NCBI GenBank assembly: GCA_965205155.1
Contig: OZ242033.1
Span: forward strand, 628,590 to 692,589
Direction of reading: 5' to 3'
DNA length: 64,000 bases
DNA from: Candidatus Aldehydirespirator sp.
Lineage (GTDB): Bacteria; Actinomycetota; Acidimicrobiia; Acidimicrobiales; Aldehydirespiratoraceae
This document shows positions 27,544 through 30,641 of the stretch, piece after piece. Numbering within the stretch: position 1 is the stretch's first letter; the number at the start of each line of letters is the position of its first letter. Made by a program: the position numbers and the translations under genes. The notes under the pieces are model-generated. The model saw nothing but the letters and a program-made list of their open reading frames with translations. It was not told the origin of the DNA and did not search any database.

Positions 27544-28326
27544 TCAGGCGGGGGTGGACTCGCGGGCGCCCAGGGCTGCGTCGACCGGGAGGATGGCGCC
27601 GTTGAGGTAGCTGGCCTCGGGCGAGGCCGCGAACAGGATGGCCGCGGTGACCTCCTCCGGCCGCCCGAAGCGTCCCTCGGGGATGTGGCGCTGGATGGCG
27701 GTCTGCAGGTCGGGGTCACGCATCCCGGCCAGCAGGGCCTCGGTGGCTATGAGCCCGGGCGCCACCGCGTTGACCCTCACGCCCTTGGGGCCCAACTCCA
27801 GGGCCATGGCCCGGGTCAGCCCCTCGACCGCACCCTTCGACGCGATGTAGGCACAGCGGTTGACCACCGCCAGCCGGGCCAGGATCGAGCTGACGTGAAC
27901 GATGGCGCCGCGGCCCCGCTCGACCATGCCCGGTGCCACCAGCCGGCTCAGCTGCAGCAGACCCCTCACGTTGGCCCGCCAGACCGTGTCGAAGGCCTCG
28001 AGGGACAGGTCGAACATCGAGGAGCGGTCGATGAGGGCGGCGTTGTTGACCAGGATCGACACCGCTCCCAGCGAGGCCTCGACATCGGAAGCGAGCCGGC
28101 CGACGTCGGCCTCGTTGCCGATGTCGGCCTGGAACACCTCGGCCGTCCCGCCGGCATCGGCGATGGCCTGCCGGGTGGCGTCAGCTCCGTCGGCGTCGCT
28201 GCGGTAGTTGACCGCGACCCGGGCGCCCTCGGCCGCGAAGGCTCGAGCGGTGGCCGCGCCGATGCCCCTGGATGAGCCGGTCACCAGGACGGTGTCGCCT
28301 TCGAAGCGGTCGGGTCTCACGATCAT
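27544..28326 (-). CDS. SDR-family oxidoreductase
   Basis: Start MIVRPDRFEGDTVLVTGSSRGIG at 28326 (ATGA overlap with the lipoyl-domain gene). YIASK catalytic motif. Confidence 0.85.
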   Translation of the reverse strand: MIVRPDRFEGDTVLVTGSSRGIGAATARAFAAEGARVAVNYRSDADGADATRQAIADAGGTAEVFQADIGNEADVGRLASDVEASLGAVSILVNNAALIDRSSMFDLSLEAFDTVWRANVRGLLQLSRLVAPGMVERGRGAIVHVSSILARLAVVNRCAYIASKGAVEGLTRAMALELGPKGVRVNAVAPGLIATEALLAGMRDPDLQTAIQRHIPEGRFGRPEEVTAAILFAASPEASYLNGAILPVDAALGARESTPA

Positions 28327-28592
28327 CCCCCTCCGATGGCCGCAGCCTCGGCCTCGTTGTCGGCGATGACGGCCAGCACTGTGCCGACGTCGACGGTCTC
28401 GTCCTCGTCTACGAGTATCCGGGCCACCACGCCGGCGCACGGCGCCTCCAGCTCGTTCTCCACCTTCTCGGTCTCCACCTCCGCGATCACCTCGCCCTCC
28501 ACGACGTGTTCGCCCTCGTCGACGTACCAGGCCACGACGGTGCCGTCCTCCATCGTCAGCCCCCACTTGGGCAGGATCACATCAGTGGCCAT
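28323..28592 (-). CDS. free-standing lipoyl-attachment domain protein (89 aa)
   Basis: Lipoyl-domain pattern with the lysine motif (VIAEVETEKVENELEAPCAGVV). GAGGAG SD. No E2 catalytic core follows. Confidence 0.8.
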   Translation of the reverse strand: MATDVILPKWGLTMEDGTVVAWYVDEGEHVVEGEVIAEVETEKVENELEAPCAGVVARILVDEDETVDVGTVLAVIADNEAEAAAIGGG

Positions 28593-28617
28593 TCAGATCT
28601 CCTCGTGCATCGTGTGG

Positions 28618-29667
28618 TCAGTACTGGGCGGCGGTCTTGATGGCGGCGGCGATGTCGTCGGGGCCGGGCAGCACGATGTTCTCCAGGGGCACCGAGAAGG
28701 GGATGGGGGTGTCGAGGCCGTCGACCCGCACCACCGGGCCTCGCAGCTCGCTGAAGCACGCCTCGCTGATGCGGGCGCTCAGCTCCGCGCCCAGCCCGCC
28801 GATGCGGGGGGCCTCGTTGGCCACCACTACCCGGCCGGTCTTGGATGCCGATGCCAGCACGGCGGCCGCGTCGTAGGGCCGGATCGTCCGCAGGTCGACC
28901 ACCTCGACCGAGATGCCGTCGTCGGCGGCCCGCGCCGCGGCGTCCAGCGCCATGGGCACCATCCGCATGGCCGCCACCACCGTCACGTCGCTGCCCTCGC
29001 GGGCGACCGCAGCCTCCCCCAGCGGGGTGGTGTAGTACTCCGGCGGCACCTCGGCCCGGCTGCGGTACAGCGCCTTGTGCTCCAGGAACAGCACGGGGTC
29101 GTCGCTGTCGATCGACGCCAGCAGCAGGCCTTTGGCGTCGACCGGGTTCGACGGAGCCGCGATCACGATGCCGGGCACGTTCAGGAACCAGCCCTCCACG
29201 CTCTGGGAGTGGTGCGGACCGCCGCCGAAGCCGCCCCCGCAGGCGGTGCGGATCACCAGCGGGGCCTTGAACTGCCCGTCGAACATGTAGTGGAGCTTGG
29301 CCACGTTGTTGACCACCTGGTCGTAGCACTCGGCGATGAAGTCGGCGAACATGATCTCGGCCACCGGACGCATGCCGACCATGGCCGCGCCCGCGCAGGT
29401 GCCGATGATGGCCGCCTCCGACAGGGGAGTGTCCCGGACCCGCTCGGGCCCGTACTTGGCCAGCAGTCCCTTGGTCACGCCGAAGTCCCCGCCCATCTCG
29501 GCGATGTCCTCGCCGATGAGGAACATCTCCGGGTGCTTCTCCATGGCCAGGTCCAGGGCGTTGTTCAGAGCCTGGGTGAAGCTGGCCTTGCGAACCCTGT
29601 CCCTGGGTTTGCGGGGTGTGCGGGCGGTGCGGGCCGGCTTGGTCGCGGCGGCGTCGGTGGCACTCAT
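28618..29667 (-). CDS. TPP-dependent 2-oxoacid/acetoin dehydrogenase E1 component, beta subunit
   Basis: Start MSATD at 29667 (ATGA overlap with E1 alpha). Transketolase-like pyrimidine-binding and C-terminal domains (FLIGEDI…DTPLSEAAIIG…). Confidence 0.85.
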   Translation of the reverse strand: MSATDAAATKPARTARTPRKPRDRVRKASFTQALNNALDLAMEKHPEMFLIGEDIAEMGGDFGVTKGLLAKYGPERVRDTPLSEAAIIGTCAGAAMVGMRPVAEIMFADFIAECYDQVVNNVAKLHYMFDGQFKAPLVIRTACGGGFGGGPHHSQSVEGWFLNVPGIVIAAPSNPVDAKGLLLASIDSDDPVLFLEHKALYRSRAEVPPEYYTTPLGEAAVAREGSDVTVVAAMRMVPMALDAAARAADDGISVEVVDLRTIRPYDAAAVLASASKTGRVVVANEAPRIGGLGAELSARISEACFSELRGPVVRVDGLDTPIPFSVPLENIVLPGPDDIAAAIKTAAQY

Positions 29668-30641
29668 CGCGAGTCCACCTCCCAGCCGACATAGACGTCG
29701 GCGGTGGCCTTGGCCGGATCGGGTGCAGGGCTGTCCTTGGCGAAGGTGATCCACTCCTCGATCAGGTGCCGGGTCTCCTGCTCGATGGCGTCGAGCTCGG
29801 CCTGGTCAACGGCCCGCTCGGCCAGCGCCTCGCCGGCCAGCATGATCGGGTCGCGCTCCTCCTTCCAGTACTTGACTTCCGCCTCGGGCCGGAACTCCCC
29901 GGCGAAGATCCCCTGCCAGCGCCAGGTCTTGAACTCCAGGAAGTACGGGCCCGCCCCGGAGCGGACGTGCTCGACCGCCGCGCCCACCGCGGTCCAGGCC
30001 TCGACGATGTCGTTGCCGTCGACCTGACGGCTGCCGAATCCGTAGCCCTGCACCATGTCGACGATGTCGGCCGAGGCGTGGCCCTCGCCCACCGGCATGG
30101 AGATGGCGTAGCCGTTGTTGATGCAGGCGTACAGCACAGGAAGGTTCCAGATGGCGGCCATGTTTAGGCTCTCGTGGAACTCGCCTCGCCCCACGGTGCC
30201 GTCACCGATGATGGCGCAGGCCACGTTGGGCCGGTCCCGCATCTTGGCGGCCAGCGCCACTCCCAGCACGGTGGCCATGTAGGAGCCCTCCACCGCGTTG
30301 TCGCCGAAGTTCCCCACGGTCGGGTCGGCCGAGTGCAGGCTGCCCCCCTTGCCGCTGCACACCCCGGTGGCCCGCCCGAACAGCTCGGCCATGATCCTCT
30401 CGCCGTTGCCGCCGTGGCGCTGCTGGGCCAGGGCGTTGATGCCGTGGCAGCGATGGTCGGGGAAGAACGTGTCGGTGGCCTCGAGGTGCCAGGCCAGCGC
30501 GGCCTGGGTGGCCTCCTGGCCCAGCCCGGTGTGCAGCATCCCGGGCACGTTGCCCTGCTCGAACTCCCGCTCGAGTCCCTGCTCGAAGGCCCGTATCAGC
30601 CACATGTCGCGGTACAGGCCCGTCAGCGTCGACGTGTCCAC
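29664..30641 (-). CDS. TPP-dependent 2-oxoacid/acetoin dehydrogenase E1 component, alpha subunit
   Basis: GTG at 30641 with GAAGGAGAC upstream. GKGGSLH and the TPP motif IGDGTV…NNGYAIS. Confidence 0.85.
   Translation of the reverse strand: MDTSTLTGLYRDMWLIRAFEQGLEREFEQGNVPGMLHTGLGQEATQAALAWHLEATDTFFPDHRCHGINALAQQRHGGNGERIMAELFGRATGVCSGKGGSLHSADPTVGNFGDNAVEGSYMATVLGVALAAKMRDRPNVACAIIGDGTVGRGEFHESLNMAAIWNLPVLYACINNGYAISMPVGEGHASADIVDMVQGYGFGSRQVDGNDIVEAWTAVGAAVEHVRSGAGPYFLEFKTWRWQGIFAGEFRPEAEVKYWKEERDPIMLAGEALAERAVDQAELDAIEQETRHLIEEWITFAKDSPAPDPAKATADVYVGWEVDSR

Follow-up and report, generated by a model that had tools for sequence, protein, structure and literature searches.

Substrate channelling by a swinging arm that is tethered to a core has its textbook example in the 2-oxoacid dehydrogenase complexes. 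Their first component, E1, is a thiamine diphosphate (ThDP) enzyme that takes the α2β2 form in the pyruvate, branched-chain 2-oxoacid and acetoin complexes (for example, human, PDB codes: 1NI4 and 3EXE; Thermus, 1UM9; and Geobacillus, 1W85). Here, we consider an E1 of this kind encoded within a 64-kb stretch of DNA (the window; C1:628590–692589, with a GC content of ~70%) from the 3.9-Mb genome of a member of Candidatus Aldehydirespirator, a sponge-associated lineage of the Acidimicrobiia (PMC11706023). It shares with the classical enzymes the two-subunit ThDP fold and its motifs and, likewise, has a lipoyl domain encoded next to it, in this case as a separate 89-aa protein, Lip. The β-subunit Glu and His and the equivalent of α-subunit His63 are kept, whereas the position of α-subunit His263 is taken in the cassette by Ile, Leu or Val, and the surrounding loop, which bears the phosphorylation sites of the mammalian enzymes, is shorter by four residues. 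Moreover, in contrast to the classical complexes, the cassette has no E2 with a binding domain (and hence no assembled complex), and no E3 in the operon. The interpretation that we favour, as probable rather than secure, is that the window carries the thiamine/lipoate module of a conserved catabolic cassette, in which E1 would load its own carrier, and the housekeeping E2 and E3 would finish the cycle.

Three further described systems invite comparison. The actinobacterial OdhA uses lipoyl domains that are supplied in trans, such that in OdhA/AceF of Corynebacterium and Mycobacterium the lipoyl and acyltransferase domains reside on different polypeptides (PMC10415282), as they do in the cassette; there, however, E1o and the catalytic domain form one fusion protein and a full E2p supplies the lipoyl domains, whereas the cassette has a free 89-aa Lip and a core that is free in relatives and absent here. 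The H protein of the glycine cleavage system (GcvH), too, is a small, free lipoyl protein that can diffuse; a decarboxylase loads it and the general dihydrolipoyl dehydrogenase recycles it. However, it belongs to family PF01597 and receives an aminomethyl group from a pyridoxal phosphate enzyme, whereas Lip is an E2-type lipoyl domain (PF00364) that lies beside a ThDP enzyme. The acetoin system, AcoA/AcoB/AcoC(/AcoL), has an E1 pair of the same broad subgroup (motifs HRxHG and NNxYAIS), and the best NCBIfam match of Lip is to the first 87 residues of an AcoC-type E2, that is, to its lipoyl domain (PRK14875, model positions 2–87, 94 bits). The AcoC model, however, extends over 372 positions into a C-terminal catalytic part, whereas Lip ends after the lipoyl domain; the core found in relatives is a CAT-fold PF00198 protein, and the cassette has neither AcoL nor AcoX. 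The catalytic part of AcoC has an α/β-hydrolase fold, and AcoA keeps the loop His.

In the window, the genes form a tightly packed operon on the minus strand, to which the coordinates of all operon genes refer, in the order: amidase, Rieske oxygenase, flavin reductase, E1α, E1β, Lip, a first short-chain dehydrogenase/reductase (SDR1), a cyclohydrolase resembling Mch, SDR2 and a luciferase-like oxidoreductase (LLM). Their frames are intact, without frameshifts or internal stops. The 325-aa ThDP-binding subunit, E1α (29664–30641; Pfam E1_dh, PF00676, 194 bits), begins with a GTG codon that shares 1 nt with the stop codon of the flavin reductase gene, and overlaps by 7 nt with the gene for the 350-aa E1β (28618–29670; Pfam Transket_pyr, PF02779, and Transketolase_C, PF02780). 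Lip (28323–28592) matches Pfam Biotin_lipoyl and no other family (74 bits); it has its own ribosome-binding site, GAGGAG, and its TGA stop overlaps the ATG of SDR1 (27544–28326; Pfam adh_short_C2, 207 bits) as ATGA (28323–28326), an arrangement that signifies translational coupling. A preliminary description of this DNA had given the order as E1α, E1β, an 89-aa lipoyl open reading frame (ORF) and then an SDR, and the Pfam domains and coordinates bear this out.

The arrangement is widely shared. When one genome for each prokaryotic species was scanned, 80 orthologous loci emerged, with E1α identities of 63–93%, from Acidimicrobiia and Chloroflexota (Caldilineaceae and Anaerolineales); one of them carries a gammaproteobacterial label, probably through an error in binning. 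The order E1α–E1β–Lip–SDR1–Mch is conserved, usually with an LLM of the F420/Mer type nearby, and clustering of the ORFs recovered E1α in 77 loci, SDR in 68, E1β in 67, Mch in 65, Lip in 60 and LLM in 49. In nearly all of them, SDR1 sits either after Lip or after an E2 core gene, and the LLM ortholog of one Anaerolineales locus (L092) is closest to F420 Mer models. The Anaerolineae versions also have a protein of ~105 aa from the TIGR03792 family between Mch and LLM (L095:13936–14256 and L094:13678–13989).

Lip has the hallmarks of an E2-type lipoyl domain rather than of a biotin carrier, for which we required a Lys within E-T-[DE]-K-[VIA] and no biotin MKM motif: the predicted lipoyl-lysine, Lys43 (codon 28464–28466), lies at the tip of the hairpin within ETEKV, which in relatives reads ETDKI or ETDKV. 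Both Lys43 and the N-terminal VILPKWGLTME are invariant across the loci, and the domain is followed by a short, linker-like tail that is rich in Ala and Glu. In every orthologous locus that has it, Lip stands alone and terminates after 78–95 aa, and public data hold more than 100 near-identical proteins of 89–91 aa. The ratio of non-synonymous to synonymous substitution (dN/dS) is 0.067 (median dN 0.036 and dS 0.51; 644 pairs from core-less Acidimicrobiia), so that even where the core is lacking Lip is functional and under strong purifying selection. Its free-standing occurrence upholds the earlier proposal that the lipoyl protein is separate and diffusible. Moreover, Lip is only 39% identical to the lipoyl domain of the ordinary E2 of the same genome and is, therefore, a distinct carrier, not a copy of the housekeeping domain. 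Apparent fusions of E1β to Lip (in L024, L048, L052 and others) were dismissed, being long stop-to-stop frames that arise from out-of-frame, Arg-rich read-through of GC-rich DNA; Lip is separate there too.

The same genome encodes a second small lipoyl-domain ORF (≤115 aa; C1:1,948,004–1,951,312, corresponding to L015:4005–7313), directly upstream of a fused E1α–E1β (an 870-aa frame in which the GH of the loop is kept), with no E2 core nearby; the pair adjoins genes for an RraA-like protein and an M20 peptidase. Given this second free lipoyl ORF beside another E1, free carriers are a habit of this organism.

The more distant loci reveal what accompanies Lip elsewhere. Between Lip and the SDR gene, 30 loci by ORF clustering, or 31 by tblastn with the protein from L085, have a gene of 228–240 aa, as an ORF of its own, adjoining the Lip stop codon or overlapping with it. 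Its product matches PF00198 alone (205 bits over residues 15–226 of 234), carries the catalytic FDHRFIDG motif and is thus a CAT-fold acyltransferase core with neither a lipoyl nor a subunit-binding domain. The family, therefore, has a split E2, comprising a lipoyl carrier gene of ~89 aa and an acyltransferase gene of ~230 aa, as seen in these 31 loci and in the sister locus described below. Since neither protein has a peripheral subunit-binding domain, there can be no assembly on the core, and the parts must meet by diffusion. Thus, across at least 80 species from two phyla, the arm, the transferase and E1 are encoded as separate proteins devoid of a binding domain.

By comparison, the 64-kb window contains no E2 core (PF00198) and no Lpd, and the overlap of Lip with SDR1 leaves no room for a core gene; nor does the operon encode a canonical single-chain E2 with lipoyl, subunit-binding and core domains. 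In a tree of E1α rooted with general E1s, all basal clades have both Lip and the core, whereas the state with Lip alone requires at least four changes, one of which defines the 36-row clade that contains the window. The state with neither arose once, in a small clade of Caldilineaceae. On this gene tree, the absence of the core from the window's clade is a derived lineage state, the core apparently having been lost at least four times with Lip kept each time; the window shows an E1 pair followed by a free-standing carrier because the separate transferase gene, still present in the operon of relatives, has disappeared from its lineage. The preliminary description had taken the lack of E2 core and E3 to suggest a non-canonical acyl-generating or C–C-cleaving system with a diffusible lipoyl protein. 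The separate Lip, the loss of the loop His and the absence of E2 and E3 from the neighbourhood all stand, but the missing core does not hold as a feature of the system's design, as the related loci and the sister locus encode one directly after Lip, and the biosynthetic role to which it alluded finds no support (see below). A search for relocated cassette cores in the genomes of two loci that lack both Lip and the core (L067 and L069) yielded short E2-like frames at contig ends, which proved to be other E2s (37–39% identity) beside other E1s.

With regard to catalysis, the E1 looks competent, as judged by its motifs. We defined the ThDP/Mg motif of E1α as GDG-x(25–30)-NN, and this is present as G146-D147-G148 … N175-N176; His37, equivalent to human His63, is retained. 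E1α matches human 1NI4_A with 137 bits, and E1β aligns with the β-subunit of the Thermus 2-oxoacid dehydrogenase (1UM9_B; 321 bits). The alignment pairs the motifs of the two β-chains, so that the Glu that activates the cofactor (in TPLSEAA) and the catalytic His (in GPHHSQS) are both in place. The pair is not a pyruvate dehydrogenase (PDH) E1 by the curated NCBIfam equivalogs (TIGR03182, TIGR03181 and PRK11892 were tested): E1α scores 256 bits against the PDH E1α model, below its cut-off of 394, and E1β falls short with 317 against 321 (the PRK09212 subfamily) and 305 against 454. In the Acidimicrobiia versions, E1β has a Lys/Arg/Pro-rich N-terminal extension (approximately the first 28 residues) that is missing from the Chloroflexota versions, and the true start codon of the window's E1β is, therefore, uncertain.

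The striking departure lies in a loop of E1α, T239–E249, with the sequence TWRWQGIFAGE (29895–29927). In phmmer/HMMER alignments to human PDH E1α (1NI4 and others), the human segment TYRYHGHSMSDPGVSYR lies opposite TWRWQGIFAGE----FR, so that Ile245 occupies the column of human His263, and the loop is four residues shorter. Counted along the mature human chain, His263 is the second His of YHGH and directly precedes the phosphorylation site Ser264; together with α-subunit His63, it is one of the two residues that form hydrogen bonds to pyruvate in human E1p (PMC6168537). The YRxxGH pattern is, therefore, absent from the window's E1α, and among the 80 orthologous loci, in all of which the loop conforms to KTWRWQG[ILVMSA]F[AST]GEFR, the column is never His and the loop is always short; the residue is hydrophobic in 78 and Ser or Ala in the other two. 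By comparison, a His is found at this column in 136 of the 147 E1α sequences that could be aligned from a general set (the 150 best cluster representatives out of 1.8 billion proteins), and of the 11 sequences without it, six come from the window's own family. The three other E1α paralogs of the same genome all retain the GH. That the conserved His is replaced by Ile had been noted at the outset, and the alignment to the human enzyme confirms it; the coordinates then assigned to the loop, 29895–29924, correspond to W240–E249 and are right to within one codon.

The nearest E1α that retains the His (P0123; KTYRWQGHFSGDPASYR, 53% identity) places this change in order. Its encoding genome was found in a sample of 400 Chloroflexota genomes, and the locus (L190) reads GntR, E1α, E1β, Lip (88 aa), E2 core (230 aa, with HDHRCFDG), Mch and amidohydrolase, with a second Mch and an SDR on the opposite strand. 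As this sister locus has both the split E2 and the link to Mch, and yet keeps the His, these features are older than the loss of the His, and the suggestion that the altered loop goes hand in hand with a free lipoyl protein is not sustained. The His-to-hydrophobic change and the four-residue deletion are derived, and fixed, in a single clade of a cassette family that was by then already specialized, and, being confined in this way, the loop weighs less as a sign of new chemistry. Nevertheless, the role attributed to the conserved α-subunit His can be tested on an E1 that lacks it, with the His-keeping sister as a natural comparison pair. Within L190 (906–13564), the two Mch paralogs are, respectively, 52 and 38% identical to that of the window, and a GntR regulator is present. 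A His-less fused E1 from an Asgard metagenome-assembled genome (P0167) was considered as a relative and rejected: there is no Lip or Mch within 4 kb on its own contig, and a metagenome scan with it returned mostly ordinary fused E1α–E1β proteins that retain GH, with no Mch close by; this variant is, therefore, unrelated to the cassette.

If Lip is to function as a carrier, it must draw on genes elsewhere. The genome-wide search for lipoylation and E2/E3 genes that the preliminary description had called for located an ordinary 494-aa E2, Lpd, LipB and LipA together at C1:3.175–3.180 Mb, 2.5 Mb from the window. The genome has a single Lpd above the cut-off (C1:3.179 Mb) and two PF00198 matches in total, namely, the ordinary E2 (C1:3.177 Mb) and an OdhA-like E1o–E2 fusion (1.705 Mb). 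None of the 80 loci contains Lpd, LipB or LipA, and there is, accordingly, no dedicated E3. The presence of LipB, LipA and Lpd in the genome makes both the lipoylation and the reoxidation of Lip possible.

We propose that E1 would form a ThDP adduct with a keto intermediate of purine-like ring breakdown, cleave a C–C bond of this substrate, and reductively acylate the lipoyl group presumed to be carried by Lys43 of Lip. In relatives, the free core would then pass the acyl group to coenzyme A (CoA); in the window's lineage, the acyl-dihydrolipoyl arm could be unloaded to CoA in trans, either by the single ordinary E2 or by the OdhA-like protein through its E2 domain, and the housekeeping Lpd would reoxidize the arm. 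In the classical complexes, the choice between lipoyl domains is made by E1; E2 cores and E3 are less selective and will act even on free lipoamide. Recognition by E1 of its own lipoyl domain, coupled with the near-indifference of E2 and E3, would account for the retention of the carrier, the repeated loss of the core and the absence of an E3 from the cassette throughout. The repeated deletion of the transferase with the arm kept thus amounts to a natural experiment that separates the specific parts (E1 and its lipoyl domain) from the interchangeable ones (E2 core and E3).

Several observations weigh against this proposal. Three loci (L067, L068 and L069) keep E1α–E1β–SDR–Mch with neither Lip nor the core (~160 nt separate E1β from the SDR gene), and E1 may, therefore, have a lipoate-independent role. 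The number of core losses is approximate, because it was derived from a tree of E1α rather than of species, and transfer between phyla is likely. Moreover, PF00198 matches (between 2 and 12) are present in each of ten genomes, whether or not these have the cassette core, and so give no signal either way as to unloading in trans; the idea that the cassette core is kept where ordinary E2s are lacking was dropped for the same reason. Lastly, since the missing His is one of the two that bind pyruvate, the ordinary 2-oxoacid chemistry of the E1 may be impaired or changed.

The repeated loss of the core, with no visible replacement, is also what would be expected if in core-less lineages the acyl group loaded by E1 never reached CoA, and were instead hydrolysed or handed to an operon enzyme that is not an E2 (the Mch-like protein, an SDR or the amidase, for instance), with Lpd alone recycling the carrier. 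The translational coupling of Lip to SDR1, and the gain of amidase, Rieske and flavin reductase genes upstream in the window's genus, are compatible with such a partner. However, no protein of the operon resembles a thioester-using transferase or a thioesterase by Pfam or NCBIfam, and the basal core-less loci (L048, L049 and L051) are without the genus-specific additions; discarding the thioester would, furthermore, waste energy that relatives conserve. We, therefore, judge this alternative to be unlikely.

Rather unlikely, too, is a non-oxidative role for the E1, as a ThDP lyase or carboligase akin to the orphan E1 pairs of sugar-branching pathways, in which Lip would be a redox or regulatory accessory and not an acyl acceptor. 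The uniform absence, in 80 of 80 loci, of a His that aids 2-oxoacid binding and decarboxylation would suit such an enzyme, as would the three loci that dispense with Lip and the core. On the other hand, Lip and a catalytically intact core (DHRFIDG) are ancestral partners of the E1, the β-subunit His assigned to protonation of the dithiolane is retained, and the sister cassette has the same partners in combination with the loop His; moreover, Lip is under strong selection directly beside E1.

As to the pathway, the constant partners of the cassette are the SDR, the Mch-like cyclohydrolase (in the window, 26553–27515; Pfam MCH, 340 bits; NCBIfam TIGR03120, 281 bits and above its cut-off) and the F420-type LLM. 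In the Anaerolineales locus (L092, 2463–20008), the cassette is followed by an 8-oxoguanine deaminase (572 bits), LLM, a dihydropyrimidinase (512 bits) and an SsnA-like hydrolase, the deaminase and dihydropyrimidinase both being above their NCBIfam cut-offs. The genes that come before it encode BMP-type ABC transport proteins, a carbamoyltransferase, a molybdenum enzyme resembling XDH and a 2-hydroxyacid dehydrogenase; M20 peptidases and helix-turn-helix (HTH)-cupin regulators recur in related loci. In several species of the window's genus, an antisense permease of the NCS2 (xanthine/uracil) type is found between E1β and Lip (L024:12015–13901, L026:12068–13285, L030:12033–13868 and L031:8428–10200). 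The window itself also encodes a BMP-type ABC system, two NCS2 permeases, a molybdenum hydroxylase, hydantoinase A/B, four Rieske oxygenases, DeoC and an HTH-cupin regulator. At the gap between E1β and Lip, two loci (L025 and L026) have a pair of small ORFs on the opposite strand that, by eye, resemble a toxin–antitoxin pair of the nucleotidyltransferase/HEPN type.

These annotations recall the reductive pathway for uric acid and 2,8-dioxopurine, which involves XdhD, YgfK, SsnA, HyuA, YgeW, YgeY and YgeX (bioRxiv 10.1101/2025.05.19.654654 and 10.1101/2025.04.24.650524): the Chloroflexota cassettes are flanked by genes for XDH-like, SsnA-like, dihydropyrimidinase/HyuA-like, carbamoyltransferase and M20 proteins. 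However, these papers mention no ThDP, lipoyl or cyclohydrolase component, whereas the cassette adds E1, Lip, the core, SDR, Mch and LLM, and no YgeX-type lyase was seen in L092 or the other annotated loci. The cassette probably serves a variant catabolic route for a purine-like ring whose five-membered ring is a formamidine, which would account for the involvement of a cyclohydrolase of the Mch type. More speculatively, and with rather less conviction, it might represent an undescribed step in the catabolism of a purine-like (or pterin-like) ring that relies on a specialized E1, a free lipoyl protein and a free acyltransferase: reduction and Mch-type opening of the formamidine ring would be followed by cleavage by E1 of a keto intermediate derived from the C4–C5–C6 core, and the free lipoyl protein would carry the acyl fragment to the free acyltransferase. 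Were this so, the cassette would represent the 2-oxoacid dehydrogenase design in a wholly unassembled form, as three loose parts; the His-less clade would have a substrate or proton relay unlike that of every studied E1; and the sponge symbionts would share a carrier with central metabolism.

Together with the Mch-like cyclohydrolase, the cassette probably marks a conserved catabolic route for a nitrogen heterocycle in abundant sponge symbionts and in wastewater Chloroflexota, and we found no paper that describes this route. Likewise, our literature search found none on a cassette of Mch, E1 and a lipoyl protein, or on a His-less E1. The parts all belong to known families; what is new, as far as this search goes, is that the architecture is split and unassembled, that it has been pared down to E1 and carrier more than once, and that one clade of E1 is without the His.

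Directly upstream of the operon, on the same strand, lie a gene for a phosphopantetheinyl transferase (PPTase; 34574–35284) and one for a Sup-type polyketide synthase (PKS; 35658–45296, 3212 aa) with the domain order KS-AT-DH-MT-ER-KR-ACP-KS, and the two are similarly placed in approximately two-thirds of the loci from the genus. Tetrahydroisoquinoline antibiotic pathways (of the QncN/QncL/QncM type) provide a precedent for a link of this sort, in that an E1-like ThDP enzyme passes a unit via lipoate, with the lipoyl-bearing E2 and an acyl carrier protein (ACP) encoded in the non-ribosomal peptide synthetase cluster. The preliminary description had alluded to biosynthetic two-carbon donors, by which E1 would deliver a unit through the lipoyl carrier to a carrier protein, in this case to feed the adjacent PKS; a PPTase homolog (54–57% identity) also adjoins E1α in two other loci (L045 and L046). 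Such a function is very improbable. There is no PKS next to the cassette in any locus outside the genus, nor near it in the basal core-less loci (L048, L049 and L051), and in ~10 loci of the genus the place of the PKS beside the operon is taken by a divergent Rieske4–DeoC–Rieske3 set (compare L018, L025 and L039). It is Mch, the SDR, LLM, nucleobase transporters and purine-type hydrolases that travel with the cassette, and so, in contrast to the antibiotic pathways, the conserved partners are catabolic; a linkage to an assembly line with a dedicated ACP is not conserved. The PKS block seems to have been inserted between a pair of divergent operons, both for catabolism, because in the window the PKS and permeases sit between the two gene sets that abut elsewhere, and this in turn makes a biosynthetic role for E1 and Lip unlikely.

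Decay of the locus, with Lip the leftover stump of a degraded E2 and E1 inactive, could be read into the missing core and the replaced catalytic His, but is scarcely credible in view of the selection on Lip (dN/dS of 0.067), the intact frames and coupled starts of the operon genes in the window, and a loop motif that is nearly invariant over two phyla.

The remaining genes of the operon flank the cassette on both sides. Upstream of E1α are the additions specific to the window's genus. The first gene of this extension encodes an amidase-signature enzyme similar to AtzE (32967–34643; Pfam Amidase, 344 bits; NCBIfam AtzE family, 302 bits, below the cut-off), and its start codon is uncertain. It is followed by the α-subunit of a Rieske oxygenase (31369–32613; Pfam Rieske and Ring_hydroxyl_A), for which the closest NCBIfam model, GbcA, is far from reaching its cut-off, and by the flavin reductase (30641–31261; Pfam Flavin_Reduct), which, among the loci compared, was seen in the window's genus alone. 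Downstream of Mch, SDR2 (25820–26584; Pfam adh_short) is found in the Acidimicrobiia versions of the cassette, and the LLM (24843–25823; Pfam Bac_luciferase, 173 bits) is the final gene of the operon. Elsewhere in the window, an 830-aa fusion of DUF1989 to a glycine-cleavage T-protein (aminomethyltransferase) is encoded on the minus strand (90–2582), next to an ammonium transporter.

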